Shown here: positions 886 to 23,587 of the stretch, one piece after another | Layout: every line of letters starts with the position of its first letter | How positions within the stretch are numbered: the stretch's first letter is position 1 | Assembly: GCF_000172995.2 (NCBI RefSeq) | Contig: NC_014732.1 | Location: 60,001 to 92,000 of the forward strand | Source of the DNA: Halogeometricum borinquense DSM 11551 | Lineage (GTDB): Archaea > Halobacteriota > Halobacteria > Halobacteriales > Haloferacaceae | Direction: 5' to 3' | DNA length: 32,000 nucleotides | Notes under the pieces: model-generated | What the model was told of the DNA's origin: nothing | Databases searched by the model: none | The model's input: the letters and a program-made list of their open reading frames with translations, nothing else | Position numbers and translations under genes: made by a program

Positions 886-892
886 CAGAGAT

Positions 893-3806: not shown

Positions 3807-3881
3807 CTAATTTATTGAGATTCAATTATTTGTGAAATTACATCGATCATAATAATCTGGTGTGGATTCGTACTGGAGGAC

Positions 3882-5432: not shown

Positions 5433-5506
5433 TAGCGTCTGCAAGTCTTCGCTCACGTGACTGCACAAGGTCGTGCGGTCGGGTGAGTAATCAGTTGCAG
5501 ACGCTA
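5433..5506. repeat. 12-bp perfect inverted repeat with 50-bp spacer in a 0.5-kb gene-free gap
   Basis: TAGCGTCTGCAA (5433-5444) and TTGCAGACGCTA (5495-5506). Confidence 0.6.
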
Positions 5507-5696
5507 CGATACCGCTCACTGCGGCGGGTCATCGCGCTATCCACTGCTGCGTCGGGTCCGCCGGTCGAACGCAGCGACCATATCGCCAGCAGAACAAGCC
5601 GCAACCGCCACTTCGTCAGGTCACCGACGGCAGCCGCTGGGCTCTGTTGGTCTCCAGTAGTATCCAGAACCGTGTATCGGACTACGTAGTACCGAC

Positions 5697-6965
5697 TCAG
5701 ACCGTCGAGAGTTCCGTACTGCGACGAGACGGCTCCGAACTGTTATCGAGCGTGCGATAACACGCACAAAGCGATTCTCCCGCGGTATCCCAACAGTAAC
5801 GGGTTTCGACCGCACGACGGCCGTTCTCGCCGAGCCGACGTGCGCGCTCGTGGTCTGTAGCGAGTTCGACGAATGCGAGTGCAAAGCCAGCCGGATCGTC
5901 AGCGCGGACGACGACTCCGGCGTCGGCGTCTTCGACGACACGGCGGAGCGGTTCCACATCAGTGACGACGACGGGCCGTGACATCGCCATATACTGGAAC
6001 AGTTTGTGCGGGACCGTCGTCTCCGTGTGTCCCGTTGATTGGTGCGGGACGAGACAGACGTCGCTTGCGTCGATATATGAGGGTACGTCCTCGAAGGGGA
6101 CACGGCCCGTGAACGTGACGTGATCTCCGATTCCGAGGTCGGTGACGATAGATTCGAGGTGACTGCGGTACTCTTGGCCGTTCCCGACGATAACGAGATG
6201 TGCGCTCGGGACTCGCTCTACGACGGCCGGCATCGAGCGGACGACCGCATCGAGTCCGCGGTGAGGACCGCCGAGGGTACCGACGTAGGAGATAACGAAA
6301 TCGTCTTCGAATCCCACGTCGCGGAGTTCGGCGTCGTCGAATGTTTCCAAGGAAACGTAGTTCGAGACAATATCTACCTTCGAGGCGTCGATTCCGCAGT
6401 CTCTGACGTAGTGGGCTGCCGCCTCTTCGGTGACAGCGATAACCCGGTCAGCGCGTTGGACGGCGTCGCGTTCGATTCGCTTCCAGCGGAGAACCGGACG
6501 TGTGAGGCGACGAGCGACGTACCGGAAATTTGTGAACGAGTCGAGTGAGTCGCCGCGACGGTACTGTTTGACGGCTTCGGGCCAGTTCTCGTGAAGATCT
6601 GCGACGACCGGGAGGTCGTGTTTCTCGCCCGCAGCGAGTGCCGTATGGACCATCGGGAGATCATGCGCGTGAAGCGCCTCGATTCCCTCAGTGGGGACGA
6701 TATCGTCTAACGCGTGAACCCACGACTCGACGACGTTAGTGACGAGAGTTCGTGTCCCAGCGGCGACGCCGTCGAGACCCGCGTACGCCGCTTGAAACGG
6801 GCGGCGGATGACGGTCGCCGAACCAACCTCCTCGCGGTCGGGAAGGTCCTCGTCGGCCTCCGACAGGATGTAAACAGTGTGACCGTCGGCGGCCAACGAC
6901 TCGACCTCTTTTGCGAGACGGATGTCGGTTGGATAGACCGCGTTCAGGAGCATGCAGATGCGCAT
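5697..6965 (-). CDS. GT4-family (group 1) glycosyltransferase
   Basis: The ORF track starts at a TTG at 6983; the ATG at 6965 (MRICMLLNAVYP...) is the more likely start. It has a two-Rossmann GT-B layout with the C-terminal motif FTGRVP....Y....DVCLVPH....E...PHKLFQYMAMSRPVVVT. Confidence 0.88.
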   Translation of the reverse strand: MRICMLLNAVYPTDIRLAKEVESLAADGHTVYILSEADEDLPDREEVGSATVIRRPFQAAYAGLDGVAAGTRTLVTNVVESWVHALDDIVPTEGIEALHAHDLPMVHTALAAGEKHDLPVVADLHENWPEAVKQYRRGDSLDSFTNFRYVARRLTRPVLRWKRIERDAVQRADRVIAVTEEAAAHYVRDCGIDASKVDIVSNYVSLETFDDAELRDVGFEDDFVISYVGTLGGPHRGLDAVVRSMPAVVERVPSAHLVIVGNGQEYRSHLESIVTDLGIGDHVTFTGRVPFEDVPSYIDASDVCLVPHQSTGHTETTVPHKLFQYMAMSRPVVVTDVEPLRRVVEDADAGVVVRADDPAGFALAFVELATDHERARRLGENGRRAVETRYCWDTAGESLCACYRTLDNSSEPSRRSTELSTV

Positions 6966-7112
6966 CGCTGGTACCTGCCACAACCGGTGACGAATAAAAC
7001 GTTACGCAGGTTAGGAACCGTGAACTCGTTCGACAGAACGTTCGCCGCCGCATAATTAAGTCCGATTCGCCAGTGAAGACAGTATACCCCGCCGCCACAC
7101 GGCGCGACACCC

Positions 7113-8951
7113 ATGTCAGAAACCACAACAATCTCCGAGCCGACCACGTCGAACGATATCCGAGAAGAACGCCTCGAACGGTGGGTAAAACAACCGCCAG
7201 TCGGACCGAACATGCAGTATCTCCGCGACGCCGAACGGGTCGCCGCACTCGATCATCTCGGTCACCGCGACACAGTGTTAGATCTCGCCTCCGAATCAAC
7301 ACTGACGGCCGGTATCGACGCTGACGAGGTCGTCCGCCTCGACTTCTCGGCCGACGCCAGCGAGACGGCCCGCGAGGAACTCGGTGACCGCGTCGATACC
7401 TACGAAGTGACGGAACCAGAAGCACCGCGCTTGCCGTTTCCGGACAACCACTTTGACGGGGCAGTCTGCATCGGCCCTTACGACTGGAAGTTCCTCGACG
7501 TGGCCGGTCTAACCGACGAAGTACACCGCGTCACGACAGCCGACGGACTCTATGTCTTCTCCGTTCCGACACCGCGGTCACCCTACGCGGTAAACGGAAA
7601 CAACCGCTTCTACGAACCCGAGGAAGCACTCGACATTATCTCGCCGGAGTGGACACTCACGGACTACGACCTCCTGTTTCAGTATCCCCGCCCCCTCCAC
7701 CTCGGAATCAACTCCCTGCCAGAGAGCCTTCAAGAGCGATTCGTCACCGTTTCCGAACGACTCACAGAACAGTTGACCGAACGCGAGATGTGGCATCGCG
7801 CGTCCTATATCGTCCTCGCGGCGCGGCCGATGAAGTTCAAGTCGTACCTTCAACGGGGCGTTGAGTCGCTGTTCCGGCCGACCGGAGAGAACGGCTTCTG
7901 GGATGAGGTTACCGACTCCATTATCCGCGCACTGAACTACGAGATAGACGGTGACTCGGTAACGTGGTCACGCGACGAGAGCCGAGAGTGGCGCTACGCC
8001 ACGATGGCGATGATGGGCGTGCTGAACTGGCGGGCGTCGTCCGTCGGATCGGACCGCCACGACAAGAAAATTCACCGCGAGTTCGAGTACTTCGACGAGC
8101 ATATCGCGTCGGGCGAACTCCTGAACGAGATGCCGAGTTACGGACTCGGCCCGCTCCTCTCGGTTTACGCGACGGCCGCGACCGTGTTCGATGAGAAGCG
8201 CGAGTCGTACCTCGACTCGGCGCGGACGTTGTTCGATCACGCCGTGGAGACGGTCGAGTTTGACCACGCCGAAGACAGTCTCGTTCTCTACGGCGCGACG
8301 TATCTCCTCGAAGCGGATCCAACAGACGAACGGGTTCGGGCGTTCGTCAAGCGCGGCCTCTCCGAAATATCCGACCGTCGTGCTACCGAGGGACTGTTCC
8401 ATTTCGACAATGCGACGACGCGACGACACCAAAACCAGATGTACACCTGTTGGGCGCTCGCGCGCGCCATCGAAGTGACCGGACAGACGGGCTACCTCAC
8501 TGACGTGGAGTCGGCTCTCGATTACACCATCGAGCATCGGATGCGCAAAGACGGCGCATTCATCTGGGAGGATCTGCCGTTCTACGCCCGAATCCCCGGC
8601 GAGATTCGGAATCGGCTCACCGAACGGACGCCGTACTGGCAGTATCTATACGAGTGCCACCAGACGTTCTTCGTCAACGCCGTCGCACATTACTACGACG
8701 CGGGTGGCGAGAACGACTATACACAGGCGGTGCGCCGCGCGATGGCGTGGATATTCGAGACAAACGGCACTGGCCGTGATCTCGTTGACGTGTCGGGTAT
8801 CGGCGTCCCGATGCGGCAGGTGACAGTAGACGGGCGGATGGACAACCGACAGTTCACCAGTGGATGGCGCGACCAACAGTACAAAGGAACGTACGAAGTC
8901 GGCTCCTACGTGATGGCGCTGACGCATCTCCTCGACGGCACCATCAACTGA
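7113..8951 (+). CDS. fusion protein: N-terminal class-I methyltransferase-like domain plus large C-terminal all-helical (alpha/alpha-toroid-like) domain
   Basis: 612 aa. Residues ~40-170 resemble a type-11 SAM methyltransferase (VLDLASES..., FPDNHFDGAVCIGPYDW, DGLYVFSVP). Residues ~240-612 show repeated helix-hairpin signatures (HQNQMYTCWALARA, CHQTFFVNAVAHYY, YEVGSYVMALTHLL) reminiscent of six-hairpin barrels. Confidence 0.75.
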   Translation: MSETTTISEPTTSNDIREERLERWVKQPPVGPNMQYLRDAERVAALDHLGHRDTVLDLASESTLTAGIDADEVVRLDFSADASETAREELGDRVDTYEVTEPEAPRLPFPDNHFDGAVCIGPYDWKFLDVAGLTDEVHRVTTADGLYVFSVPTPRSPYAVNGNNRFYEPEEALDIISPEWTLTDYDLLFQYPRPLHLGINSLPESLQERFVTVSERLTEQLTEREMWHRASYIVLAARPMKFKSYLQRGVESLFRPTGENGFWDEVTDSIIRALNYEIDGDSVTWSRDESREWRYATMAMMGVLNWRASSVGSDRHDKKIHREFEYFDEHIASGELLNEMPSYGLGPLLSVYATAATVFDEKRESYLDSARTLFDHAVETVEFDHAEDSLVLYGATYLLEADPTDERVRAFVKRGLSEISDRRATEGLFHFDNATTRRHQNQMYTCWALARAIEVTGQTGYLTDVESALDYTIEHRMRKDGAFIWEDLPFYARIPGEIRNRLTERTPYWQYLYECHQTFFVNAVAHYYDAGGENDYTQAVRRAMAWIFETNGTGRDLVDVSGIGVPMRQVTVDGRMDNRQFTSGWRDQQYKGTYEVGSYVMALTHLLDGTIN

Positions 8952-9083
8952 ATGGCTGAACCGATCTGCCAAGTGGGCTGCTACGCCGAGTACTAGAATG
9001 CCTCGATTCAGGCGACAGCGGCGTCTTCGAAGAATAGCCCGCCCATAACTATCCCGGGAGGGGCCGTCCCAACGGCCACTACG

Positions 9084-10523
9084 ATGACGCAGCCGCAGTC
9101 ACGACCCAACATCATCTGGATCTCTCTGGAGAGCGTCCGCGCCGACCACACCTCCGTCGGCGGGTACCACCGTGACACGACACCGAACCTGCGCCGCATT
9201 GCAGACTTACGGGACGGCCGGTCGTTCGACGAGTGTTTCGCCCACGCTCGATGGACACCCGCGGTCTCTACCTCTATTCTGACGGGGACGTATCTCACAA
9301 CGCACGGCGTCGGTCACGCGAACACGCGCGACGTTCGCCAACTCCCCGGCGACCTGAAGACAGCCCCCGAACTGCTGAAGTCGGAAGGGTACACCACCGC
9401 CGGGTTCAGCAGTAACCCGTGGATTAGCGACGTGATCGGACTCGACCGTGGATTCGACCGCTTCAAGGCAAATCCCAACCGCGACGACTTCCTCTCGCCG
9501 AGAGGCGTGCGGGCCGGGTGCAACTATCTCCGCGAGTTTACCACCATGGGTGCCGGATTCGAGACGGAGCCGATCTACCACGCGCAGTGTCTGCCGCCGT
9601 ACTACCAATATCAATCACTCTGTGAGTGGGTAGACGACCTCTCCAACGAAGACCGCCCATACTTCCTGTATACCCATATGAACAGTTCGCACCACCCGTA
9701 CAATCCACCGCTTTCCCTCCTGAAGCGGTTCTTGGGAGAGTTCGATGGAACCCCGAAGGAGGCCATCGAGACGGCGAAGGAACTGACGAACAACATCTGG
9801 CGAGAAGTAGCCCACGGCTGCGACTTCACTGCCCAGCAACGAGCCGCGCTGAAGGCCGTCTACGACGCTGAGATAGCGTTCTCAGACCACTTCGTCGGGA
9901 AACTGTTCGAACACGTGCGCGCGAATACCGACCAAAAGACGGTGTTCGTGATAACCGGCGATCACGGCGAACTGTTCGGCGAGCAGGGCGTTCTCGGGCA
10001 CAATCTCACCCTCCATGACGGGCTAACGAAGGTACCAATGGTGACCTACGGGATGAACTTCTCCGAAAGCGTCACCGAGAACGTCGTCCAGCACATGGAC
10101 GTGATGCAGACACTGGTCAGTGCCGTCGGCGGCGACACCAGTCAGTTCCAAGGCGTGGATCTGGCACGCGAGACACGCACGTACGCGCTCATGCAACGCG
10201 GCCCCCGAATGGACGACCTGAACACCGTCCTCGAACACAACCCCGACTGCGATATCAGCAAGTACCATGCAGGAGCAATAGACTGTCTCCGCTCTGTAGA
10301 ATGGAAATACCAGCGGAGCGACGACCGAACGGAACTGTTCAAGCTCCCCGATGAGGAGACGAACGTCGTGGACAAATATCCGGACGCTGCCGCAGAGATG
10401 GACGCTGCGCTGGACGAGATGCTTCCCGAGGCGCAGTTCGACGACGACGACAGAGAAGCGGCCAATCAAGTCGAACTCTCATCGCAGATGAAAGACCACC
10501 TCGCAGACCTCGGATATCTCTAA
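9084..10523 (+). CDS. sulfatase / alkaline-phosphatase-superfamily enzyme (Thr-nucleophile type)
   Basis: 479 aa. Motifs: NIIWISLESVRADH, WTPAVSTSILTG (Thr58 at the nucleophile position), HMNSSHHPYNPP, FVITGDHGELFGEQG. Confidence 0.88.
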   Translation: MTQPQSRPNIIWISLESVRADHTSVGGYHRDTTPNLRRIADLRDGRSFDECFAHARWTPAVSTSILTGTYLTTHGVGHANTRDVRQLPGDLKTAPELLKSEGYTTAGFSSNPWISDVIGLDRGFDRFKANPNRDDFLSPRGVRAGCNYLREFTTMGAGFETEPIYHAQCLPPYYQYQSLCEWVDDLSNEDRPYFLYTHMNSSHHPYNPPLSLLKRFLGEFDGTPKEAIETAKELTNNIWREVAHGCDFTAQQRAALKAVYDAEIAFSDHFVGKLFEHVRANTDQKTVFVITGDHGELFGEQGVLGHNLTLHDGLTKVPMVTYGMNFSESVTENVVQHMDVMQTLVSAVGGDTSQFQGVDLARETRTYALMQRGPRMDDLNTVLEHNPDCDISKYHAGAIDCLRSVEWKYQRSDDRTELFKLPDEETNVVDKYPDAAAEMDAALDEMLPEAQFDDDDREAANQVELSSQMKDHLADLGYL

Positions 10524-10868
10524 TCGGTCCCCAACGACGGTTGTTTTTGTCTAAAATAGTAAATATAGATGACATTTATGTCTGGTCGCAACAAATAGTG
10601 GCGACGAGCAACAGAGAGAAGCGGCGAAAACGGACAGAGGTGGCACTAGAACAGAGAGGGCGTTGGATCTGAGACGGAGGGGTACACGGACAGATTGGAA
10701 AAATCAGCCGTCTACGAAGAGATTTGAAGATTATTTGTCACTTTGTCAGTTAGCCGTTCCCTGTTATCGGCTAGTTCCGTATTCAGCTTCGGTTTCCAGA
10801 TGCCACAAGTGGGATTATCGTGGCTAACTTTGGTTTGTGATTACGTGTCAAATGGTAACGTGCCAGCC

Positions 10869-13800
10869 ATGATTCGCTCAAACACCAAACAGAGCGCTAT
10901 CGCCATCGTGTTAGCTCTCGTGACACTGACCGCATCAATCACAGCGGGTGTTGTTTTCGCCACAGGACCGGCCGTGGCGCACGGCGACCACACCGACGGT
11001 GGGGGGACTGACGGGTCGAACGAGTGGGCGACCGATTCAGACTCGTTCAAATCCGAGACGGTGTTATCGGGACTTGACCGACCGACCGAGACTGTCTTTC
11101 TCCCCGACGGTCGGATACTGATCATTCAACAAGGTGGGAAGATACTCATCGACGACCCAACGACGAAAGGTGGGGCCGAAACGTACCTCAACATCAACCA
11201 AGTCGATAGTCTCGAATCAAATCGTGAGCGCGGTCTCCTCGGAATCGCCATCGCGCCCGACTTCGAGCAAAGCGGGGATTTCTACGTCTATTACACCCGT
11301 CTCGACAATCCCGGTGCGGAAGACGAGGCGGACACCGAACCGGAGAACGTACTCGCTGCGTTCACTCACCGAGAGAACAGCGGTGGGACGACGAGTCGGG
11401 CAGACCCGAACAGCAAGCAGATTCTCTGGCGCAACGAGATTCGGACCGGGAAATCTATCGTCTGCTGTCACTTCGGTGGCGGACTCGACATCGGACCGGA
11501 CGGGAAAATATACATCACGACCGGTGAGGAGTTCCAAGGCTGGCGCTCGCAGGATCTCTCTGTGCCCGACGGTAAGGTCATCCGCCTGAATCAAGATGGC
11601 TCGATCCCGCAAGACAATCCGTTCGTCGATGACGGAGACCCCGAGACCCTCGGAGAGGTTTGGGCGTACGGTCTCAGAAATCCGTACCGGGCGAAGTTCG
11701 CTCCCAACGGGAATCTCTACATCGGAGAAGTCGGGTCCAACCGAGAAGAGGAACCGAGTTCGCAAGAAGACATCCATCTCGGAGCAAAAGGTGCGAACTA
11801 CGGATGGCCCAACTGCGAAGGTAACTGTGATGACCCCGCGTACGACGACCCGATCTATACGTACTCGCACATCGATTCGGGTGATCCGCCGGGTGCGGCA
11901 GTCACGGTCGGACCCGTCTACACCGGCGACATGTACCCTGCGGAGTACGACAACGTCCTGTTCTACAGCGACTACAACGACGGATGGGTCAAGTATCTCA
12001 CCCTGAACGATGACGGGACGACAGTCGGGCAGAGCTACAACTTCGACGCCGACGCTGGACCGCTCGTGTCGTTGACGATGGGCCCGGACGGCGCGCTCTA
12101 CGGGACGAACTACGGTGGACCGCCGGGTGCAGGTGAAATCGTTCGCTACGTCTACGAAGACACAAACAGCGCACCGAGCATCGACTCGACGAGCGTCTCG
12201 CCTGAAAGCGGTGCGATCCCACTTGAGGTAACGTTCGAGGCGAGTGCATCGGACCCCAACGGCGACGATCTGACGTACACATGGCATTTCGGCGATGGAA
12301 CGACAACCCGCGGCGCGAGCGTCACACACACCTACAGTGAGGCAGGGTCGTACGACACCTACGTCGAAGTGAGCGATGGAAACACGACCGTCGAGTCAGG
12401 AACGACGACGATCACGGCAGGCGAACCACCACAAGTTGACATTACGACGCCTGCAAACGGCTCTCTGTTCCGTGCGGGCGACTCGATAGACGTTGCGGCG
12501 GACGTAACAGATCCCGAAGACGGGCAACTGAGTGGTGACTCCGTCGAGTGGTCGGCCTTCCTCACGCACAACGATCACATCCACCCGGACACGACCACAA
12601 CGGGCAACTCGTTCACGTTCGACGTTCCAACAACGGGGCACCCCACAACCGGCGACGTTGGCTACAGACTCTCGGTAACCGCTACGGATTCGGACGGTCT
12701 CCAGACGACCAAGAGCATCGAGATACGACCTGACGAAGTCGATGTCACGCTGAAGACGGAACCCGACGGGATCCCTATCGACATCGAGGGATCGCCAAAA
12801 TCCACCGACGGTGGATACACGTTCGATACGGTGATCGGCTACGAACACAGTCCGTCAGCTCCGGAATCAGTCTGTCGGCAGGGAACGACCTACGAGTTCA
12901 CAGGGTGGAGCGACGACAACACGGAGCGCGTCCGGACGTTCACCGTCCCCGAGTCTGACACGACGCTGACTGCGCAGTACCAGTCGGCCGGGTCCTGCGA
13001 AGACCTCCCCGAAAGCGGACTCGTCGGACACTACGAAGCCGACTCGGGTGTACAGATGAACGCGAGCGGCGTAACCGGATGGACGGACAAATCCGGAAAC
13101 GGAAACGACCTCAGCGCCGCGGGCGCACCGCAGTTCGACGCTGACGGCGCGACCGGCGCAGGTGCAATCGCCTTCGACGGCGAGGATGACGTACTCGACC
13201 GGTCCGGTCTCACCGGGTTCTCCGGCGGAAGCGAGAACCGCTCGATGTTTCTCGTCGCCAACTACACCGACAACAACGGCGGATTCGGCGGTGTCGCCTA
13301 CGGCCGCGGCGGAAACAACAAGGCGTTCGGTCTGGTCGTTGACGACAAGGGTCGGTTGACAGTCCAAGGCTTCGGCGGCGGCAACGACTTCCCCTCGGAC
13401 AAACAGGGCCTCGGTGCCGGACGGCTCACGCAGTCGGTCGTCTACGAAGGCGGCCAGTTCACTCAGTACGCCAACGGCCAACAACTGAACTCCGGAACCC
13501 ATCAGTTCGACACGAATCCGCAGCGGTTCGTCGTCGGCGGTGAGATAACGCCGCCGCCGTACACCGAGATGCGCGTGTCTGCTGTCCTTGTCTACAACCG
13601 CGCACTCTCGACTGAAGAGCGGCAGCAGGTCCAGTCGTACCTCTCCGAGAAGTACATCGGAAACAGCACCACAGAACCGAACGACCCGCCCGAACTGGGA
13701 GACATATCCGTCACCTACACGGGCGGCGAGAAATCGATTAACGTGACCGCGGCGGCGTCGGACCCCGACGGCGACGTTGATCCGTCGAGCGTCCGCATCG

Positions 13801-15329
13801 TCGAACAACCGACGAGCGGAACCGTGACGAACAACGGCGACGGCACCGTGACGTATGCGACCAGCGACGAAAGCGCAACGAGCGATTCGTTCACTGTCGC
13901 TATCAGTGACACCGACGGGGCCGAGTCCGCTCCGGCGACGGTTGACCTCACCTACCAGATCAGCGAAACCAACGCGCCACCGACGGCGAACGACGACGCT
14001 GCAAACGTCACTGTCGGTCAGAGTGTCAAAATCCCGGTCCTCGGAAACGACGGTGACTCCGATGGCTCTCTCGACACCTCGTCGGTGACAATCGTCGCAC
14101 AGCCCTCGACCGGGAGCGTGACGATAGACGGCGACGGGGCTATCACGTACACGCACACCGGTGACAGCGCAACGACGGACTCGTTCACCTACGAAGTCTC
14201 CGACGACGACGGCGATATCTCGAACGTTGCGACGGTCGAGATTACCGTTGCGGAGCCAGATCCGGCCGACGGCGTACCCGAGACGAACGACGACCACGGA
14301 ACGGTCGAATCGGGGGAAACGGTTACGCTCAGCGTACTTGCCAACGACTCCGCGAGCGTCGATGCGAGTACGCTCCGAATCGACGGCGACGCAGACCACG
14401 GAACCGCGACAGTAGAGAACGGTCAACTCGTCTACCAACACAGCGGAGATTCGGCGACGGACGACATGATCGAGTACACCGTCGCGGACGCGAACGGAAA
14501 TCGCTCGGCCCCGACGTTCGTCTTCATCGAAATCACAGAGTCAACCGACCAAGACCCCGAAGAAGGCGATACCGACGAAAGCGACGGTGGCGACAACGGC
14601 GGTGAAGACGGGAGCAATGACGGAGACAACAACGGTGGCGGATCGAGTCCACCACCGAGCAACAATGGCGGCGGAGGCGATGACCGACCATCTCGTCCGT
14701 CCAGCCCGTCCGGTAGTTCCGCCGGAAGCGGGTCAGTTCCGTCTGCCGAGCAGAAAGCGTCCTTCGAGGTCTCGAACGTGGCGCTTTCGAGTACGAACGT
14801 CACCGTTGGAGAAACTGTGAACGCCTCGGCCGTCGTCGATAACACCGGCAACGCAGCGGGAAGTACAACTGTTGATCTCGCTGTCGGGAACGACACCGTC
14901 GATGCTCGAAGCCTCACGGTCGGCGCAGGAGCGAATGTGACCGTGGCGTTCTCGTACACGTTCGATCAGTCGGGAGCGTACGAACTCCGACTCGGGAACC
15001 AGTCGCTCGGGACAGTGACCGTCTCCAACGCGACGCAGACGGACGAATCCAACAACGACGACACGGGCGACGGAGACAGCACATCGGAGGCAGTGACAGA
15101 GGGAACCGGGACTGACGAACGTAACGAGCGCGTAGAGAACGGAAATCGCAGTAGTACAGAGACGAGGACAGCCACCGACGAACCGACGGCAGTCACAGCA
15201 GATGATGAAAACAAGGAGAACAGCACGGAGACAGAGACGAACACCGGAACCCCCGGTTTCGGACCGTTCGTCGCAGTGCTCTCGGTACTCCTCGCGGTTG
15301 TGATGCTTGGGCGTCGCCGTCTGGACTGA
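10869..15329 (+). CDS. giant secreted cell-surface protein: PQQ-dependent sugar dehydrogenase beta-propeller + PKD + Ig-like + LamG + 3 cadherin-like repeats + CARDB + PGF-CTERM
   Basis: The start is most plausibly the ATG at 10869 (MIRSNTKQSAIAIVLALVTL... signal/TM); the track's TTG at 10743 adds 42 implausible residues. Visible motifs: GLLGIAIAPDF, CCHFGGGLDIGPDGKIY, GLRNPYR, GANYGWP (sGDH-like); TYTWHFGDGTT..HTYSEAGSYD (PKD); LamG-like block ending VLVYNRALSTEERQQVQSYL; three ~95-aa repeats with DSFTY.VSD.DG; a CARDB-like block; C-terminal TGTPGFGPFVAVLSVLLAVVMLGRRRLD. Confidence 0.93.
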   Translation: MIRSNTKQSAIAIVLALVTLTASITAGVVFATGPAVAHGDHTDGGGTDGSNEWATDSDSFKSETVLSGLDRPTETVFLPDGRILIIQQGGKILIDDPTTKGGAETYLNINQVDSLESNRERGLLGIAIAPDFEQSGDFYVYYTRLDNPGAEDEADTEPENVLAAFTHRENSGGTTSRADPNSKQILWRNEIRTGKSIVCCHFGGGLDIGPDGKIYITTGEEFQGWRSQDLSVPDGKVIRLNQDGSIPQDNPFVDDGDPETLGEVWAYGLRNPYRAKFAPNGNLYIGEVGSNREEEPSSQEDIHLGAKGANYGWPNCEGNCDDPAYDDPIYTYSHIDSGDPPGAAVTVGPVYTGDMYPAEYDNVLFYSDYNDGWVKYLTLNDDGTTVGQSYNFDADAGPLVSLTMGPDGALYGTNYGGPPGAGEIVRYVYEDTNSAPSIDSTSVSPESGAIPLEVTFEASASDPNGDDLTYTWHFGDGTTTRGASVTHTYSEAGSYDTYVEVSDGNTTVESGTTTITAGEPPQVDITTPANGSLFRAGDSIDVAADVTDPEDGQLSGDSVEWSAFLTHNDHIHPDTTTTGNSFTFDVPTTGHPTTGDVGYRLSVTATDSDGLQTTKSIEIRPDEVDVTLKTEPDGIPIDIEGSPKSTDGGYTFDTVIGYEHSPSAPESVCRQGTTYEFTGWSDDNTERVRTFTVPESDTTLTAQYQSAGSCEDLPESGLVGHYEADSGVQMNASGVTGWTDKSGNGNDLSAAGAPQFDADGATGAGAIAFDGEDDVLDRSGLTGFSGGSENRSMFLVANYTDNNGGFGGVAYGRGGNNKAFGLVVDDKGRLTVQGFGGGNDFPSDKQGLGAGRLTQSVVYEGGQFTQYANGQQLNSGTHQFDTNPQRFVVGGEITPPPYTEMRVSAVLVYNRALSTEERQQVQSYLSEKYIGNSTTEPNDPPELGDISVTYTGGEKSINVTAAASDPDGDVDPSSVRIVEQPTSGTVTNNGDGTVTYATSDESATSDSFTVAISDTDGAESAPATVDLTYQISETNAPPTANDDAANVTVGQSVKIPVLGNDGDSDGSLDTSSVTIVAQPSTGSVTIDGDGAITYTHTGDSATTDSFTYEVSDDDGDISNVATVEITVAEPDPADGVPETNDDHGTVESGETVTLSVLANDSASVDASTLRIDGDADHGTATVENGQLVYQHSGDSATDDMIEYTVADANGNRSAPTFVFIEITESTDQDPEEGDTDESDGGDNGGEDGSNDGDNNGGGSSPPPSNNGGGGDDRPSRPSSPSGSSAGSGSVPSAEQKASFEVSNVALSSTNVTVGETVNASAVVDNTGNAAGSTTVDLAVGNDTVDARSLTVGAGANVTVAFSYTFDQSGAYELRLGNQSLGTVTVSNATQTDESNNDDTGDGDSTSEAVTEGTGTDERNERVENGNRSSTETRTATDEPTAVTADDENKENSTETETNTGTPGFGPFVAVLSVLLAVVMLGRRRLD
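15240..15329 (+). other. PGF-CTERM archaeosortase sorting signal of the giant surface protein
   Basis: A Thr/Glu-rich linker is followed by PGF (15252-15260), a hydrophobic helix and the basic tail RRRLD. Confidence 0.85.
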
Positions 15330-17445: not shown

Positions 17446-17561
17446 GGACGGACAGGGAGAGGGAAGAAGAGGGACAGACAGAAAGGGGAGAAGAGGGACA
17501 GACAGAAAGGGGAGAAGAGGGACAGACAGGAAGTAGAACGGGGGAAGAACAGCGGACGCGG
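17446..17561 (+). repeat. T-depleted purine-rich tract containing ~2.7 copies of a 24-bp tandem repeat (17466-17530)
   Basis: 17446-17533 contains no T and only 8 C on the + strand. The unit GAAGAGGGACAGACAGAAAGGGGA repeats at 17466, 17490 and 17514 (the last copy partial). Confidence 0.85.
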
Positions 17562-17574
17562 TGGTGTCGGGTGG
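17547..17574 (+). repeat. ORB-like element, short class (3-prime side of orc1/cdc6)
   Basis: GAACAGCGGACGCGGTGGTGTCGGGTGG. Confidence 0.65.
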
Positions 17575-17634
17575 ACAATCAAAGATCGCCAGGGCGCTGA
17601 CAAACTAGAGCGGCGGACGTAGGCAGCGTACTTA

Positions 17635-17656
17635 GAACAGCGGACGTGTGGTGTCC
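17635..17656 (+). repeat. ORB-like element, short class (3-prime side of orc1/cdc6)
   Basis: GAACAGCGGACGTGTGGTGTCC; a degenerate copy, GAGCGGCGGACGTAGG, lies at ~17608-17623. Confidence 0.6.
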
Positions 17657-17813
17657 AAGCCGAACTAGATACCATCAGACGGATTGGAAAACCGGAAATT
17701 CGAAAACGGGTGAAACACAGTTCGTATTCGAGAACTCCAACACCACTATGTCCGGAGTATCTCCAGTTAATAACGCCTCGACGTTTCGAAATCAAAGGAG
17801 TCGAGTTACAAAG

Positions 17814-19067
17814 TCAGGTTCCGTGGAATTCGTCGAGCGTCGTCGGTTTGTCGCCGTCGTCGAGGTACGGATCGATGCTGTCGTGGACGCCGACGAGTTC
17901 GACGGTGTCCGACATCGCCGAGAGAATGAGTTCGACATCCATGTCGAGTGCGTATTCACGGTACGTTCCACCACGGCGGCCTTCGTTCCGTTCGGTGACT
18001 GAGACGATGCCCAGCATAGCGAGTTCGCTCAGATGGTCGCGCATCCGTCGCGGAACAAGTGGGTCGCGGTTTGCGAGTTCGGCAAAACGGGTGTAGCGGG
18101 GTCGAACATCGCGCGAACGGATGGGTGTCTCGTCTTCAAGGTCCAAGGTGAGGAGAGCGTAGAGGACAAGGTGACCATGCTCGGTCAGTCCGTTGATACC
18201 CTCTTTGATTCGGCCGCGTTCGAGAGCACGACGTCCACGCCGGACGTGATCTTCTTCGATGGTCTCGGTATCTTCGTCGCGTGCAAGATCACCTGCCTTC
18301 ATGAGAAGGTCGATTGACTGGCGCGCATCACCCGCGTCTTTCGCGCCGTAGGCGGCACACAGCGGGATAACTTCCTCCGAGAGGACGCCGTCGTGGAAGG
18401 CGACTTCCGCCCGCTGTTCGAGGATGGCACGGAGATTTTCGGCGTTGTAGGCGGGGAAATGAATCTCCTGTTCGCACAGTGAACTCTTGACTTTCGGGGA
18501 GAGGTCGTCGCGGAAAGAGAAGTCGTTCGAGATACCGATAAGACCGATTTTTGCGACTTCGAGATTGCCGTTGGCGCGGGCACGGGGGAGTTGATACAAG
18601 ATGCTGTCATCGTTGACGTGATCGATCTCGTCAAGAACGACGAGAACGGTTCCCGCTCGGTCGTCGAGTTCCTCCCAGAGCATCTCGTAGACCGAGGCGA
18701 GAGGGTAGCCCGTCGTAGATATCTGATTCGATTCCGACCGAAGGCTGTTAACAAGACGAGTAGCAATCTGGTACGAACTCGTGAGTCCGTCGCAGTTGAG
18801 GAACGTCACCGAGAGGTCGATGTCGTCGTACTGGGCAGCGTCCTCACGGAGGTGCGAAAGGAGGTACTTCGTCGCTGCGGTTTTTCCGACTCCGGTTTTC
18901 CCGTACAGGAAAACGTTGTTTGGTTGCTCGCCGTTGATCACGGGCTGGAGTGCCGCCTGATACGTTCGGAGTTCTTCGTCTCTCCCAACGAGTTGTTCGG
19001 GCTGGTAATCCTCACGAAGGGCATCCCGGTCCCGATAGATGTCGTTGTCCCGCTCGAACAGCGCCAT
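17814..19067 (-). CDS. orc1/cdc6: Orc1/Cdc6 replication initiator
   Basis: The likely start is the ATG at 19067 (MALFERDNDIYRDRDALREDYQPEQLVGRDEE...); the track starts at a GTG at 19079. It has Walker A LYGKTGVGKTA, Walker B LVVLDEIDH and a C-terminal winged helix (LGIVSVTERNEGRRGGTYREYAL). Confidence 0.95.
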   Translation of the reverse strand: MALFERDNDIYRDRDALREDYQPEQLVGRDEELRTYQAALQPVINGEQPNNVFLYGKTGVGKTAATKYLLSHLREDAAQYDDIDLSVTFLNCDGLTSSYQIATRLVNSLRSESNQISTTGYPLASVYEMLWEELDDRAGTVLVVLDEIDHVNDDSILYQLPRARANGNLEVAKIGLIGISNDFSFRDDLSPKVKSSLCEQEIHFPAYNAENLRAILEQRAEVAFHDGVLSEEVIPLCAAYGAKDAGDARQSIDLLMKAGDLARDEDTETIEEDHVRRGRRALERGRIKEGINGLTEHGHLVLYALLTLDLEDETPIRSRDVRPRYTRFAELANRDPLVPRRMRDHLSELAMLGIVSVTERNEGRRGGTYREYALDMDVELILSAMSDTVELVGVHDSIDPYLDDGDKPTTLDEFHGT

Positions 19068-19091
19068 GAACACGTCCACTCATCGGTGGCT

Positions 19092-19099
19092 TATAAAAC
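19092..19099 (-). promoter_or_regulatory. candidate TATA box of orc1/cdc6 (leaderless spacing)
   Basis: The minus strand reads TTTTATAA, centred ~28 nt upstream of the ATG at 19067 and directly abutting an ORB-like element. Confidence 0.45.
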
Positions 19100-19125
19100 C
19101 ACCGCGTCCGGAGTGTCCGCTGTTC
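19099..19125 (-). repeat. composite ORB-like element overlapping the orc promoter
   Basis: The minus strand reads GAACAGCGGACACTCCGGACGCGGTGG, followed by TTTTATAA. Confidence 0.65.
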
Positions 19126-19147
19126 TCGAAGTATATAAAGAATGGCG

Positions 19148-19179
19148 AACACACACCCCCTCCACTTTGTCCGGAGTTC
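19148..19179 (-). repeat. ORB-like element, long class with G-string
   Basis: The minus strand reads GAACTCCGGACAAAGTGGAGGGGGTGTGTGTT. Confidence 0.75.
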
Positions 19180-19224
19180 TAGTGAAAAGAGGAGGTGGGG
19201 GTCGTGACGAGCAGCAGTAACCCT

Positions 19225-19345
19225 TAGTAAACCGACGGTTTTATTGTGTAGCCAACCAAGTTACTCCGTAGTCCTCTTTGAAAGAGATAATGAGTGAGGG
19301 AACGAACGAATATTCTCTTTCTAGTGTGTATAAACCGCTAAACCG
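19225..19345. other. AT-richer spacer between inverted long ORBs (candidate DUE 1)
   Basis: It lies between the 19148(-) and 19417(+) long ORBs and contains the 13-bp palindrome CTCTTTGAAAGAG at 19274-19286. Confidence 0.4.
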
Positions 19346-19416
19346 GCAACTCTGGTGCGCGTAATCATCCGACATCTCATTCGGTCACCTATCCCCCTCA
19401 CCCCTCCACAAGACGA

Positions 19417-19446
19417 GAACAGCGGACAAAGTGGAGGGGGTGTGTT
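19417..19446 (+). repeat. ORB-like element, long class with G-string
   Basis: GAACAGCGGACAAAGTGGAGGGGGTGTGTT; identical over 30 nt to the copy at 20020. Confidence 0.8.
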
Positions 19447-19631
19447 GCGACAGTTGGAACGACACGGAGCTACGTTGAAACCGACTTAGAACCGTGCTGG
19501 ACCCGGCTACGAACGTGTTTGGGACACAGAGTGCAGTAAAATCGCCTTAGCGAGGAGCGTGACAAGCTATCGACTGGATCGTTCGTCCCATTACACTGTT
19601 TTGATGACGATGCCGATTCACCGAATCCCAA

Positions 19632-19657
19632 GAACAGCGGACATGGTGGTGTGTTCG
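19632..19657 (+). repeat. ORB-like element, short class
   Basis: GAACAGCGGACATGGTGGTGTGTTCG. Confidence 0.7.
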
Positions 19658-19740
19658 AGAGACGATTGACGTTCGAGCTACGACTCAAATTCGAACTCGA
19701 GATTGATCTGTATTCGAATCGCATCTGAAACTTGTCGATA

Positions 19741-19764
19741 ACTCCGGACAAAGTGGGGTTCGAG
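19741..19764 (+). repeat. ORB-like element, minimal class
   Basis: ACTCCGGACAAAGTGGGGTTCGAG. Confidence 0.55.
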
Positions 19765-19828
19765 ACGACTTTTATTCTCTGACAAATAGCATTATTTTGC
19801 GAATTTAAACACGTTCTATAGGGTTATT
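19765..19828. other. most AT-rich stretch of the origin region (candidate DUE 2)
   Basis: ACGACTTTTATTCTCTGACAAATAGCATTATTTTGCGAATTTAAACACGTTCTATAGGGTTATT, flanked by two minimal ORB-like copies. Confidence 0.45.
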
Positions 19829-19850
19829 ACTCCGGACGCGATGGTTTCGC
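19829..19850 (+). repeat. ORB-like element, minimal class
   Basis: ACTCCGGACGCGATGGTTTCGC. Confidence 0.5.
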
Positions 19851-20019
19851 TTTGAGAAACGAAGTGACTGCTACTTGGGTGTCGAAATAAGCTCTGCCAA
19901 CTCAAATAAACTGTGCTAACTCAGTATGATGGCTCGAGATGCAATCTCTGGTTCGACCAAACCGACGCTATACTGACCGAACTGACGTCACAGTTCGTCC
20001 GGGTACTCTCTCAGTTGTA

Positions 20020-20051
20020 GAACAGCGGACAAAGTGGAGGGGGTGTGTTCG
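20020..20051 (+). repeat. ORB-like element, long class with G-string
   Basis: GAACAGCGGACAAAGTGGAGGGGGTGTGTTCG. Confidence 0.8.
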
Positions 20052-20206
20052 ACAGTACGTTCGAGAATAGCGGTATCAATGGGGTAACACAGCTGAGTTT
20101 TCGTCACGATCTCCAAAATGCCGCGGTCATTCTCCTGCGCACGCGAGCGAAGAAGATAATATACTGACCTAGTCTATCACCGACACAGTCTATCATTGAC
20201 TCTCAA

Positions 20207-20230
20207 CGAACACCACTCCGTCCGCTGTTC
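20207..20230 (-). repeat. ORB-like element, short class
   Basis: The minus strand reads GAACAGCGGACGGAGTGGTGTTCG. Confidence 0.65.
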
Positions 20231-20309
20231 TTTGTGAGCTCTCGACCGTTGTTACCGTTCGAGAGACGGAAGTGCTTAGAGTTAAGTTTCGCGCCCGAGT
20301 GATTTAGAT

Positions 20310-20732
20310 ATGGTCAAACTCGACGACGTGGATCCTGATGAACTTCGTCGTACTCTCGCAGAGGTCGATTCCGCGAAGGAGGCGAAGCGACTCGTCGTCG
20401 CTTTAGACTATCTCGACGACGTACCGGTTTCTGTTCTCGCAGATCGGTACGGAATCCCGCGTTCAACGCTGTACTACTGGCTTGACCGATTCGAGACTGA
20501 ATCCATTGAGGAGGCGATAACCGATGAGGATCGTCCGGGCCGTCCTCGGAAACTCGACGAGGAGGACCGAAACCGACTCCGCAGTCACCTCGATACGACG
20601 CCCAGAGAGTACAACTACGATGCAGACGAGTGGACTCCGGAACTCGTTAGAGAGCATGTTGAGCATACGTTCGGCGTGACGTACTCTGTCGGTCATATTC
20701 GTCGTCTCCTCCGTGACCTGCAGTCTTCGTGA
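20310..20732 (+). CDS. stand-alone HTH / winged-helix protein resembling the N-terminal DNA-binding part of IS630-family transposases (no DDE domain)
   Basis: 140 aa. It has LADRYGIPRSTLYYWLDRFE (HTH), RPGRPRKL, and EWTPELVREHVEHTFGVTYSVGHIRRLLRDL (second winged helix). No DDE-domain ORF follows. Confidence 0.75.
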   Translation: MVKLDDVDPDELRRTLAEVDSAKEAKRLVVALDYLDDVPVSVLADRYGIPRSTLYYWLDRFETESIEEAITDEDRPGRPRKLDEEDRNRLRSHLDTTPREYNYDADEWTPELVREHVEHTFGVTYSVGHIRRLLRDLQSS

Positions 20733-20840
20733 AACTAGCGCGCTTTTCATTTCCAACTCGTTCTATCGATTCAGGAATTTGTCTCCGGCACCTTGAGGCG
20801 GAACGTATTTACTAACACGTACTCACGTATCTAACGTTCA

Positions 20841-21506
20841 ATGAGTAGTGACGAGAGCGAAACGCCGAGACGAGGTCGTCGAAGCAAGGTCCAACGACTC
20901 ATCGACGAGTACGACCTCGACGGCGAGGGTGAACGCTTAGAAGACCTGTGGACGGCGAATCGGGAGGAGCGTCTGAGTCTCCGTGAACTCGCTGACGACT
21001 TTAACCGGCGACTCCTTCGCGCAGTCATGGTCGAGGTGGGGATGAATCCGCTTGACGGCGAGGTAGCCAATACGTATCGACTCCTGACAGACGATGATGT
21101 CTCGAGCGGGATGCAGACGCAGGCCAGACAGACGCTTGAGCGCGAGGGGGTCGATGTGGATGATCTCCAGAAGAACTTCGTTTCACACCAGGCAATACAC
21201 ACGTATCTAACGAAGTACCGCGGTGTTACACAGGATAAACAAACCGACGAGGATCGTATCCAGAAAGGTCTCGACACCATCCAACGCCTCCGGAGCCGGA
21301 CGGCAGCTGTCTCCGAGAACATTGTCGAAAACCTCGTGAGTACGGGTCGCATACATGTCGGCGATTTCGAAGTCCTCGTGGATGTTCGTGTCTTCTGCCG
21401 CGACTGCGGGACGCAGTACGACGTGCAGGATCTCTTGGAGGAGGGTCAGTGCGAGTGCGGCGGCGACATCGTCTCCACCGGGAGCGAGGCAGATGTGTCG
21501 GAGTGA
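20841..21506 (+). CDS. rdfA: RdfA / hp24-like protein (rod-determining-factor family) with C-terminal zinc ribbon
   Basis: 221 aa (~24 kDa). The blocks SLRELADDFNRRLL, LDGEVANTYRLLTDDDVSSG and LEREGVDVDDL match my memory of haloarchaeal RdfA proteins. It has a C-terminal CRDC...CEC zinc ribbon (21396-21458) and lies immediately upstream of an Sph-type SMC-like gene, as in the known pairs. Confidence 0.6.
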   Translation: MSSDESETPRRGRRSKVQRLIDEYDLDGEGERLEDLWTANREERLSLRELADDFNRRLLRAVMVEVGMNPLDGEVANTYRLLTDDDVSSGMQTQARQTLEREGVDVDDLQKNFVSHQAIHTYLTKYRGVTQDKQTDEDRIQKGLDTIQRLRSRTAAVSENIVENLVSTGRIHVGDFEVLVDVRVFCRDCGTQYDVQDLLEEGQCECGGDIVSTGSEADVSE

Positions 21507-21566
21507 CGACCTGTTCTGACGGACTACCGTTGTCGGTTCTCTCGGCTCGAGGGATTCTGTGTAACA

Positions 21567-21592
21567 ACGTTACAGCGTTATTACTGTAACGT
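21567..21592. promoter_or_regulatory. perfect 9-bp inverted repeat (8-nt spacer) between the rdfA-like and sph-like genes
   Basis: ACGTTACAG-cgttatta-CTGTAACGT. Confidence 0.5.
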
Positions 21593-21643
21593 CTCCACAG
21601 CGTGTGATGAAGTATTATATGCCTTCAACGTCTTCACTCCGAT

Positions 21644-23587
21644 ATGAGTCGTGCACAGTCTACGACAGGGACCGTTACACTCCACGTCGAGAATATTGGC
21701 GGAATCAGAGAGACAACGGTCGAACTCGGCCCCGGAGTCACGGCGCTTGCGGGTCGAAATGCCACGAACCGAACATCGCTTTTGCAGTCGATTATGGCGG
21801 CGCTCGGAAGCGACCGGGCTTCGCTGAAGGGGGATGCTGATGAGGGGTCAGTAACGCTCACCGTCGGTGATCAGACGTACACCCGAACGCTGAAACGACG
21901 CGGGAGTACTGTCGTCACGGAGGGGGACCCGTACCTCGAAGACGCAACGCTTGCTGACCTCTTTGCTTTCCTCCTTGAGTCGAATGAGGCTCGACAGGCC
22001 GTCGCCCGCGGCGACGACCTGCGTGAACTCATCATGCGGCCCATCGACACCGAGGCGATACAGGAGGAAATTCGTGAACTCGAACAGGAAAAACGAGAGA
22101 TCGACAACGAGATCTCCAGTCTCGATTCTCTCGACGGCCGACTCCCCGAACTCGAACAAAAGCGCACGTCGCTGAAAGAGAAGATCGAGGAGAAACGCGC
22201 CGAACTGGAGGAGAAAGAACAGGAGATCGAGGAAGCCGATGCCAACGTCGAGCAGACGCGGGACGACCGCGACGAACTGGAGAATCGTCTCGACGACCTG
22301 AAACAGGCACGGTCGGACCTCGAAGACGTTCGATACGACATCGACGCCGAGGCCGAGAGCATCGATGCGCTTGAAACCGAACGGGATGAACTCACGACTG
22401 AACGTGAAGATATCCCCGAGGAGATCGACGGTGCTGACGAAATCGAGGCGCAGATTTCCGACCTCCGCGATCAGATGCAACGACTCGATTCCAGCGTCAA
22501 CGAACTCCAGACGGTCATCCAGTTCAACGAGGACATGCTGGAGGGAACGAGTGCGGACGTTGCTGCGGCCCTCCGCGACGGGACCGACAGTGGCTCGGTC
22601 ACTGACGCATTGGTCGAGTCGGATACGGTCGTCTGTTGGACCTGTGGTACCGAAGTCGAGACGAGTCAGATCGAAGAAACCGTAGACCGTCTCCGGTCGC
22701 TCCGCCGCGAAAAACTCGACCAGCGGAACGACCTTCGTGACCAGATTGATGACCTCGAATCCGAGCGCGACGAACTCGAACAACTGCACCGCCGTCGCGG
22801 ACGACTCGACGACCGCCTCCAGAGCATTGACGAGGAACTTGACCGACGCCGAGAGCGCCGCGAGTCGTTGAAACAAAAGCGCGAGGATCTCACCAATCGA
22901 GTTGAGACGCTCGAATCCGAGGTTGAGGAGTTGGAGTCCCGCGATTACGGCGACATCCTCGAACGCCACCGCGAGGCGAACGAACTGGAGTTCGAGATCG
23001 GTCGGCTCGAAAACGAACTCGAATCGGTCAACTCCGAGATGGAGTCCGTCGAGTCCCGTCTGGATGACCGCGACGATCTGGAAGCCCGACGCGAGGAGAT
23101 CGCCGACGAACTCGCGGACCTCCGGACGCGTATCGAGCGTATCGAGTCTGAGGCTATCGAGGAATTCAACACTCACATGGAAACCGTCCTCGACATCCTC
23201 GACTACGATAACCTCGACCGCATCTGGATCGAACGGACCGAACAGACCGTCCGTGAGGGTCGGCGGAAAGTCCAAAAATCGGTGTTCGACATGCATATCA
23301 TTCGCAGTACCGACGATGGGGCCACGTACGAGGACACCATCGACCACCTCTCGGAGAGTGAACGTGAGGTAACCGGTCTCGTCTTCGCCCTCGCTGGATA
23401 TCTCGTCCACGACGTTCACGAGACGGTACCGTTCATCCTTCTCGACTCCCTGGAGGCTATCGACTCGGGCCGTATCGCTCAGTTGGTAGACTACATCAGC
23501 GAGTACGCTGAGTACACCGTCGCGGCCCTCCTCCCCGAGGACGCGTCGGCACTCGACGACCAGTACGAACGCGTCCGCGAGATCTGA
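21644..23587 (+). CDS. sph: archaea-specific SMC-related protein (Sph family)
   Basis: 647 aa. It has an N-terminal head (VENIGGIRETTVELGPGVTALAGRNATNRTS), two long acidic coiled-coil arms, a CWTC at residues 331-334, and a C-terminal head with the signature-like LSESEREVTGLVFALAG and Walker B-like PFILLDSLEAID. Confidence 0.88.
   Translation: MSRAQSTTGTVTLHVENIGGIRETTVELGPGVTALAGRNATNRTSLLQSIMAALGSDRASLKGDADEGSVTLTVGDQTYTRTLKRRGSTVVTEGDPYLEDATLADLFAFLLESNEARQAVARGDDLRELIMRPIDTEAIQEEIRELEQEKREIDNEISSLDSLDGRLPELEQKRTSLKEKIEEKRAELEEKEQEIEEADANVEQTRDDRDELENRLDDLKQARSDLEDVRYDIDAEAESIDALETERDELTTEREDIPEEIDGADEIEAQISDLRDQMQRLDSSVNELQTVIQFNEDMLEGTSADVAAALRDGTDSGSVTDALVESDTVVCWTCGTEVETSQIEETVDRLRSLRREKLDQRNDLRDQIDDLESERDELEQLHRRRGRLDDRLQSIDEELDRRRERRESLKQKREDLTNRVETLESEVEELESRDYGDILERHREANELEFEIGRLENELESVNSEMESVESRLDDRDDLEARREEIADELADLRTRIERIESEAIEEFNTHMETVLDILDYDNLDRIWIERTEQTVREGRRKVQKSVFDMHIIRSTDDGATYEDTIDHLSESEREVTGLVFALAGYLVHDVHETVPFILLDSLEAIDSGRIAQLVDYISEYAEYTVAALLPEDASALDDQYERVREI

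Follow-up and report, generated by a model that had tools for sequence, protein, structure and literature searches.

Two plasmid origins studied in model haloarchaea are the closest described counterparts of the locus analysed here. In H. volcanii, the intergenic region (IR) adjacent to orc3 (HVO_A0001; 'ori-pHV4-2') has autonomously replicating sequence (ARS) activity, although it was weak, with few transformants recovered; the repeats in this region were described as different from the consensus of the origin recognition box (ORB) (Norais et al. 2007, PMC1868953). The orc3-adjacent region is now listed as ori-pHV4 with Orc3. In H. hispanica, oriP-cdc6K is ARS-positive (Wu et al. 2012, BMC Genomics 13:478, PMC3528665; Wu et al. 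2014, PMC3936714). Deletion of oriP failed, marker-frequency analysis identified it as the single origin of pHH400, and the ARS activity of each H. hispanica origin requires its adjacent cdc6 gene (Wu et al. 2014, PMC3936714). We analysed a stretch of 32,000 nt from Halogeometricum borinquense DSM 11551 (hereafter the window) that contains an orc1/cdc6 gene and, upstream of it, a 1.24-kb gap rich in repeats. Orthology, comparative architecture and the published literature support the reading that this locus is the orc1/cdc6-adjacent replication origin of plasmid pHBOR04, with ori-pHV4/orc3 of H. volcanii and oriP/cdc6K of H. hispanica as its orthologues. We give this reading a probability of about 0.88. 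An earlier note on this DNA, made from the sequence, had likewise proposed an Orc1/Cdc6-linked origin with an initiator-specific ORB variant, and the same lines of evidence uphold that proposal.

The locus has been described before. The IR of the gene Hbor_36740 was printed as a predicted orc/cdc6-adjacent origin by Wu et al. 2012 (PMC3528665, Additional file 4). Positions 19068-20309 of the window are identical to this printed IR (pHBOR04 79068-80309), which is present as an exact substring of 1,242 nt with 0 mismatches. This match identifies the window as positions 60001-92000 of pHBOR04. In the same publication, Hbor_36740 is placed on the minus strand at pHBOR04 77814-79067, and the plasmid is listed with one orc gene and one predicted origin. 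The sequence of the published entry is the same as that of the window, but the paper gives only the IR upstream of Hbor_36740; the ORBs that we found at 17546-17761 and a solitary copy at 14-39 lie outside the printed stretch. The entries of Wu et al. 2012 (PMC3528665) for H. volcanii orc3 and H. hispanica oriP-cdc6K contain ORBs of the motif discussed below, as does their entry for the Hbor_36740 IR. The repeats, which had been announced in the earlier note as a divergent ORB family, are therefore not a newly recognised family. The origin is already known, having been published as a prediction in 2012 and having functional counterparts in two model haloarchaea. The observations made here concern the anatomy of the locus, the enrichment of its repeats, their restriction to the two IRs flanking orc, their conservation with orc over 35 species and the match to the published prediction.

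The initiator gene orc1/cdc6 (Hbor_36740; 17814-19067, minus strand) encodes a protein of 417 amino acids (aa) and was identified by Pfam domains, by identity to Orc3 and Cdc6K and by its published coordinates. Pfam recognised Cdc6_lid (2.3e-27), Cdc6_C (6.1e-20), AAA_16 and AAA_22 in the product, which is full-length and includes the C-terminal winged helix; Walker A (GKTGVGKT) and Walker B (VLDEID) motifs can be made out in the alignment. Judging by the published annotation and by alignment with Orc3 and Cdc6K, the gene begins with the ATG at 19067, whereas the mechanical list of open reading frames (ORFs) extends the gene to a GTG at 19079. Over the full length, the window Orc shares 87% identity with H. 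volcanii Orc3 and 72% with H. hispanica Cdc6K. When a plasmid collection was searched with megablast, the best matches were Haloferax plasmids, 80% identical; the matches included regions at 38-1390 of H. volcanii pHV4 and at 1-800 of H. hispanica pHH400, where orc3 (HVO_A0001 region) and cdc6K, respectively, are annotated.

The likeness to both systems extends to the repeats. At H. volcanii orc3, the long (GAACAGCGGACAAAGTGGAGGGGGTGTGTT) and composite (GAGAACAGCGGACACTCCGGACGCGGTGGTTTTAT) ORBs are identical to copies in the window and the order of elements is the same, namely inverted ORB, AT-rich DNA unwinding element (DUE), long ORB, AT box, composite ORB and orc. ORBs also follow the gene. 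The H. volcanii locus differs in its shorter IR (688 bp), its much more AT-rich DUE and its neighbours, with a ParA gene ~1.2 kb downstream. The H. hispanica oriP/cdc6K locus carries the same classes of copies as the window: long (…CGGACAAAGTGGGGTGGGAG), short (…CGGACATCGTGGTGT, GTGGTGT) and composite (AGAACAGCGGACACTCCGGACACTGCGGACAGGGGTGGTTTTAT). Its composite site stands beside TTTTAT upstream of cdc6K and is near-identical to that of the window, three ORBs lie downstream of the gene, and oriP is the sole orc-type origin of its plasmid, as at the window locus. Differences are found in the G-string (GGGGTGGGAG in oriP versus AGGGGGTG in the window) and in the 5' halves, more of which are TACTG variants in oriP. 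Thus, the window shares with the orc3/cdc6K origin family an orthologous initiator, the ORB AACAGCGGAC-N3-GTGG with or without a G-string, and a common architecture.

Eight copies of the motif are present in the 1.24-kb gap, as the earlier note had reported; direct reading of 18900-20500 and a repeat finder confirmed the coordinates and strands of all of them. The copies were also scored with a position weight matrix (PWM) trained on the sites of relatives only, with sites counted when they exceeded 8 bits. The copy nearest to orc, here called P1 (19099-19125, minus strand), is a composite ORB without G-string (GAACAGCGGACACTCCGGACGCGGTGG) that abuts the TATA box of the gene and has the lowest PWM score in the window (19.9 bits). 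An AT-rich box (TTCTTTATATACT in orc sense; 19130-19142), conserved in the footprint alignment, lies between P1 and P2. P2 (19148-19179, minus strand; GAACTCCGGACAAAGTGGAGGGGGTGTGTGTT) and P3 (19417-19446, plus strand), both detected with the repeat finder, are long ORBs with a G-string in inverted orientation to each other. They form the orc-proximal and the distal flank, respectively, of the predicted unwinding element. Their inverted arms at 19151-19183 and 19413-19445 are 33 nt long, 91% complementary and 229 nt apart. P2 and P3 are thus an inverted pair of G-string ORBs flanking an AT-rich stretch.

Farther from orc are an accessory short ORB at 19632-19657 (plus strand; GAACAGCGGACATGGTGGTGTGTTCG; 34.4 bits), an accessory ORB of a 5'-variant type at 19741-19764 (plus strand; ACTCCGGACAAAGTGGGG; 30.6 bits) and a second one of this type, with ATGG, at 19829-19850 (plus strand; ACTCCGGACGCGATGGTTTCGC), which has the second-weakest score in the window (21.5 bits). 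The two variant copies had been classed as 'minimal'. They represent a widespread 5' variant, (T/A)ACT(C/G)CGGAC, that is common in relatives, and not a truncated site. The third long ORB with a G-string lies at 20020-20051 (plus strand; 31.7 bits) and is identical to P3, the other long copy on the plus strand, at 31 of 31 positions. It is followed at 20207-20230 (minus strand; 33.4 bits) by an accessory short ORB. These last two copies, described before as another inverted pair, converge with their G-ends inward, a polarity opposite to that of P2 and P3. Note that the G-string is confined to the three long copies and is lacking from the short, variant and composite ones.

The repeats are enriched beyond chance. 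The string CGGAC-N3-RTGG occurs 12 times in the 32-kb window (1.00 expected), a number reached in 0 of 100 dinucleotide-preserving shuffles, and eight of these occurrences fall between 19099 and 20224, i.e. in the gap. With the PWM, 11 sites were counted in the window: eight of them in the gap, two on the downstream side of orc in the adjoining IR and the last at 14-39, with none in the other ~30 kb. Among 50 shuffles, one scored as high as 20.2 bits, and the mean shuffle maximum was 2.3. Of the 12 copies in the window, 11 are found on either side of orc.

For comparison with related loci, one genome per species was scanned, resulting in 36 loci with an Orc 77-96% identical to that of the window. 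These loci belong to the genera Halogeometricum, Halopelagius, Halobellus, Haloferax, Salinigranum, Halegenticoccus, Halobium, Halobaculum, Halobonum, Halohasta and Halocatena. The 1.5 kb upstream of orc contained 227 motif copies (4.6 per kb) and the 0.8 kb downstream 115 copies (4.0 per kb). A single copy was found inside orc (0.02 per kb), and the remaining 194 kb held 34 copies (0.18 per kb). Hence, 342 of 377 copies fall within the two orc-flanking IRs, as in the window, where the repeats are confined to these IRs apart from one solitary copy. Downstream ORBs were detected in 35 of the 36 loci.

The position of each type of site is conserved as well. P1 was present in 34 of 35 loci at about -40 from the orc start, in the form CGGACACT(C/G)CGGAC(G/A)CGGTGGTTTTAT, also written CGGACACT(C/G)CGGAC(G/A)CGGTGG, and directly adjoined by TTTTAT. 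P2 was found in 35 of 35 loci at about -105 with AGGGGGTGTGT, and in each of them 5 or more of the 8 nt that follow GTGG are G. The inverted site P3 was likewise found in 35 of 35, at -295 to -476, with G- or GT-rich tails. The other copies in relatives are mostly of the short GTGGTGT type and are G-rich in only 14% (upstream) and 4% (downstream) of cases. The order of composite ORB at the orc TATA box, G-string ORB, AT-rich element, inverted ORB and short ORBs on the upstream and downstream sides is kept over 35 loci. Footprint alignments showed no variation in the ORBs and the TTTTAT box, but divergent spacers. The TTCTTTATATAC box between P2 and P1 is conserved in four of five aligned sequences, having diverged in Halobellus rufus, and is also present in the H. 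volcanii orc3 IR. We conclude that the motif classes are positional and conserved; the graded hierarchy of site strengths that the earlier note read into them would be a further, putative property. In one of the loci (L001, Halogeometricum pallidum), a long ORB block at ~3800-3910 seems to occur twice, the two copies being joined at an N; the assembly of this draft genome is probably at fault.

We next consider where the DNA may open. The earlier note had stated that the inverted long copies bracket an AT-richer stretch of ~240 bp, and this holds: the interval between P2 and P3 (19180-19416) measures 237 bp at 48% GC, compared to 57% for the window. Its GC profile has a minimum at 19275-19334, the lowest-GC 60-mer of the interval (33% GC). 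When the 1.5 kb upstream of orc was profiled in 35 relatives, the 60-mer with the lowest GC content fell between P3 and P2 in 31 and elsewhere in the other four. The P3-P2 minimum of the relatives lies at -180 to -300 from the orc start, mostly at -200 to -260, a range that includes 19275-19334. The same note had pointed to 19765-19828, between two ORBs of the same orientation, as the most AT-rich stretch. This stretch indeed has the lowest GC content of the gap (29.7%), but as a candidate for the unwinding element it does not agree with the conserved position between the inverted G-string ORBs. Judging from these sequence profiles, the family-conserved unwinding element would lie near 19275-19334 rather than at 19765-19828; the latter may serve as a second unwinding element or as a promoter, or may have no role at all.

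Within the P2-P3 interval, footprint alignments revealed a conserved half-ORB (CTACGGAGTAAC) together with an ATAAA box (19238-19280, minus strand). The half-site reads TACGGAG in the window and TACGGAC in other genera; TACGGA(C/G) aligns in six of seven genera, with a shifted TATGG in Haloferax larsenii. The ATAAA box, ~20 nt after the half-site, is less well conserved, and only its central AA is invariant in seven of seven genera. Nearest-neighbour calculations of duplex stability ranked the weakest 50-mer of the gap (19771-19820) only ninth in the window. Thus, duplex stability alone cannot place the origin or its unwinding element.

How does the motif relate to the canonical ORB? The euryarchaeal consensus is GTTCCAGTGGAAAC-AAA----GGGGG (quoted in Norais et al. 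2007, PMC1868953). The earlier note had regarded the 5' half of the motif as unlike the canonical ORB and had taken AGTGGA for the mini-ORB, with an unrelated 5' half. Global alignment argues against both views and puts the mini-ORB into the 5' half: ACAGCGGAC-AAA of the window aligns with the mini-ORB core plus AAA when a 2-nt gap is allowed. In this alignment ACAGCGG--ACAAA is placed on CCAGTGGAAACAAA and GGGGG on the G-string, and 16 of 22 specified positions match. The window motif shares with the canonical oriC1-type ORB the elements CAG-N-GG, AC-AAA and GGGGG, as well as the inverted pair around the DUE with outward G-strings. It differs in the loss of the left dyad arm (GTTCC to AGAAC), in the shortening of GGAAAC to GGAC and in a conserved GTGG that fills the spacer; moreover, most window copies are without a G-string. 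The window copies are therefore not dyad-symmetric mini-ORBs of the form GTTCCAGTGGAAAC, as the left arm is absent and the 2-nt gap is needed. A sister element, TAACAGCGGAAACAGTGGGGTGGGGGGGT, was reported by Wu et al. in the origins of H. lacusprofundi and H. walsbyi, indicating that intermediate forms exist between the canonical ORB and the window motif. From the alignment, the motif reads as an ORB that has diverged over its whole length, its 5' half corresponding to a mini-ORB remnant and its GTGG occupying the spacer before the G-string.

A TATA-like box (TTTTATAA; 19091-19098, minus strand) is centred ~27 nt upstream of the orc ATG, immediately next to the GTGG end of P1. In the footprint alignment, the TATA box stands at a conserved distance from the ATG, although the intervening sequence is not conserved. 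Based on haloarchaeal promoter geometry, this box is likely the promoter of a leaderless orc transcript.

ORBs are also found on the other side of the gene. There a 292-aa ORF converges on orc, and the 383-bp IR that separates their 3' ends contains a cluster of three copies of the short class (17546-17761), which were absent from the list in the earlier note. Motif scanning located them at 17546-17571 (plus strand), 17634-17654 (plus strand; spacer of 2 nt, one base shorter) and 17736-17761 (minus strand). Just before the first of these copies, a purine-rich 24-nt tandem repeat (AGGGGAGAAGAGGGACAGACAGAA; 3.1 copies, 96% matches) spans 17460-17533. A cluster of cognate ORBs directly 3' of the initiator gene is reminiscent of oriC2D of H. 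hispanica, an ORB-rich region downstream of cdc6E that negatively controls oriC2 and is without origin activity. The likeness consists in the placement of the cluster in the IR directly downstream of the initiator gene. In contrast to the three copies in the window, oriC2D has 11 ORBs and belongs to a different Orc/ORB family. In L028 (Halobaculum saliterrae), seven same-strand ORBs with an exact 34-nt spacing form an iteron-like tandem array 300-504 nt downstream of orc.

The solitary ORB at 14-39 (plus strand; ACAACAGCGGACACGGTGGTGTGGTT / ACAACAGCGGACACGGTGGTGTGG; also L039 6840-6870; 34.0 bits) is 17.8 kb away from orc, where an IR of 165 bp separates two convergent genes. No second copy or cluster was detected around it within the 6 kb to the left of the window, as covered by the matching contig of the public assembly. 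Isolated single ORBs were also observed in Halobellus and Haloferax loci, at ~+2.0 to +2.9 kb after orc (L004-L017, L032, L034) and at ~-2.8 to -3.4 kb before it (L007-L022, L033). The recurrent distances suggest that conserved solitary Orc sites exist outside the origin.

On the side of the gap opposite to orc, positions 20310-23587 encode an ORF with HTH_32 (transposase-like N-terminal domain), followed by RdfA (rod-determining factor A) and a 647-aa AAA_23 coiled-coil SMC-like gene. The first of these ORFs (HTH_32/HTH_29; 20310-20732) begins right where the gap ends. Wu et al. 2012 (PMC3528665) listed a transposase near the pHBOR04 origin, by which this HTH_32 ORF was probably meant. The trio is syntenic with the module only in the three closest relatives (3 of 38 loci), indicating that the repeats belong with orc and not with these genes; we therefore rejected the HTH_32 neighbour and the RdfA/SMC-like pair as partners of the repeats. 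The only ORF of at least 80 aa within the gap (93 aa; 19470-19751, minus strand) was rejected as a gene, with 0 of 38 related loci matching by tblastn. A scan of the whole window with Rfam at gathering thresholds and a tRNA scan found nothing, so that the gap is not explained by a known RNA gene. Pfam detected no Rep-family protein among the 16 larger ORFs scanned, the remaining ORFs being outside the scan. The locus does not resemble a Rep/iteron plasmid origin: the copies are irregularly spaced and of mixed orientation, and a rep gene is lacking among the 16 scanned ORFs. The left half of the window (88-15329) carries a set of glycan and cell-surface genes, whose products are an NTP transferase, a phosphomannomutase, two sulfatases, a glycosyltransferase of family GT4, a protein with a methyltransferase domain and one of 1528 aa with GSDH/PKD/cadherin domains.

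Several observations weigh against the interpretation as an active origin. Origin function is known for the orthologues, whereas the pHBOR04 locus itself is known from its sequence alone, and the H. volcanii orthologue yielded few transformants in the ARS assay. Two of seven predicted orc-adjacent origins of H. hispanica showed no ARS activity, and prediction by itself is therefore no guarantee of firing. Furthermore, the P2-P3 interval has only a moderate AT content (48% GC, minimum 60-mer 33%), the gap contains another stretch that is more AT-rich, and both are unexceptional within the window. The silent predicted origins, the few transformants and the moderate AT content lend some weight to an alternative in which the array binds Orc but is dormant or purely regulatory, serving autoregulation or titration, while pHBOR04 initiates elsewhere. 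The composite ORB on the orc TATA box would fit such a function, and oriC2D provides a precedent for an ORB cluster without origin activity. However, the plasmid has no other orc gene and no other predicted origin, the orthologue oriP resisted deletion and was the one origin seen on pHH400 by marker-frequency analysis, and inverted G-string ORBs around an AT minimum are conserved in 31-35 of 35 relatives. We consider a dormant or purely regulatory array unlikely.

It might also be argued that the repeats serve a different protein, either the product of the adjacent HTH_32 gene or a partition/centromere-binding protein, and that their linkage to orc is incidental. The start of the HTH_32/HTH_29 gene at the end of the gap and the ParA gene near H. 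volcanii orc3 could be taken in this sense. Yet the HTH_32, RdfA and SMC-like neighbours accompany the locus in 3 of 38 cases, whereas ORB clusters are found beside orc in every case. The motif can be aligned with the canonical ORB, G-string included, and the HTH_32 ORF is probably the transposase of the published list. Binding sites for another protein are thus very unlikely. The remaining possibility, a generic dispersed repeat or a remnant of a mobile element, could draw on the solitary copy 17.8 kb from orc and on the isolated copies in the related loci (0.18 per kb). It is hardly tenable in view of the concentration of copies around orc, both in the window (11 of 12, with no PWM match in the other ~30 kb) and in the related loci (342 of 377). 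In addition, the spacings are irregular and neither terminal repeats nor target duplications were noticed around the copies, although no search was aimed at them.

Taking the locus as the origin of pHBOR04, the following mechanism can be proposed. The single Orc1/Cdc6 of the plasmid would recognise an ORB variant of its own (AAC-NN-CGGAC-A-NN-GTGG), whether or not a G-string follows. Bound at the two G-string ORBs that face outward (19148-19179 and 19417-19446), it would open the DNA near 19275-19334 and load MCM. The composite ORB, with its GTGG against the orc TATA box, may allow Orc to repress its own leaderless transcript. The short upstream ORBs and the three downstream ORBs may act as accessory or titrating sites that hold Orc and tune initiation, as oriC2D does. 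Note that the downstream ORBs are located between convergent 3' ends, where no promoter is expected; a titrating role for them is suggested by analogy to oriC2D of H. hispanica. The exact site of unwinding, the autoregulation of orc and the titration of Orc are putative parts of this scheme.

Four features could in addition be parts of a layered circuit of copy-number control, undescribed for the orc3/cdc6K family: a second, more AT-rich unwinding site at 19765-19828 between the ACT-type ORBs of the same orientation; the half-ORB and ATAAA box in the primary element; the composite ORB, coupling Orc occupancy to orc transcription; and the downstream and solitary ORBs, titrating Orc or regulating distant genes. 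That all four act together in this way seems doubtful to us.

As a discovery, the locus matters little, the origin having been predicted in 2012 and its orthologues being among the experimentally studied plasmid origins of haloarchaea. It neatly illustrates that, as a rule, every Orc paralogue of haloarchaea is accompanied by an ORB dialect of its own. The comparison of 35 species adds the positional classes of sites, the composite site on the orc TATA box and the finding that downstream ORB clusters are nearly universal in the family. Such details could be of use in planning mutagenesis of H. volcanii ori-pHV4 or H. hispanica oriP.

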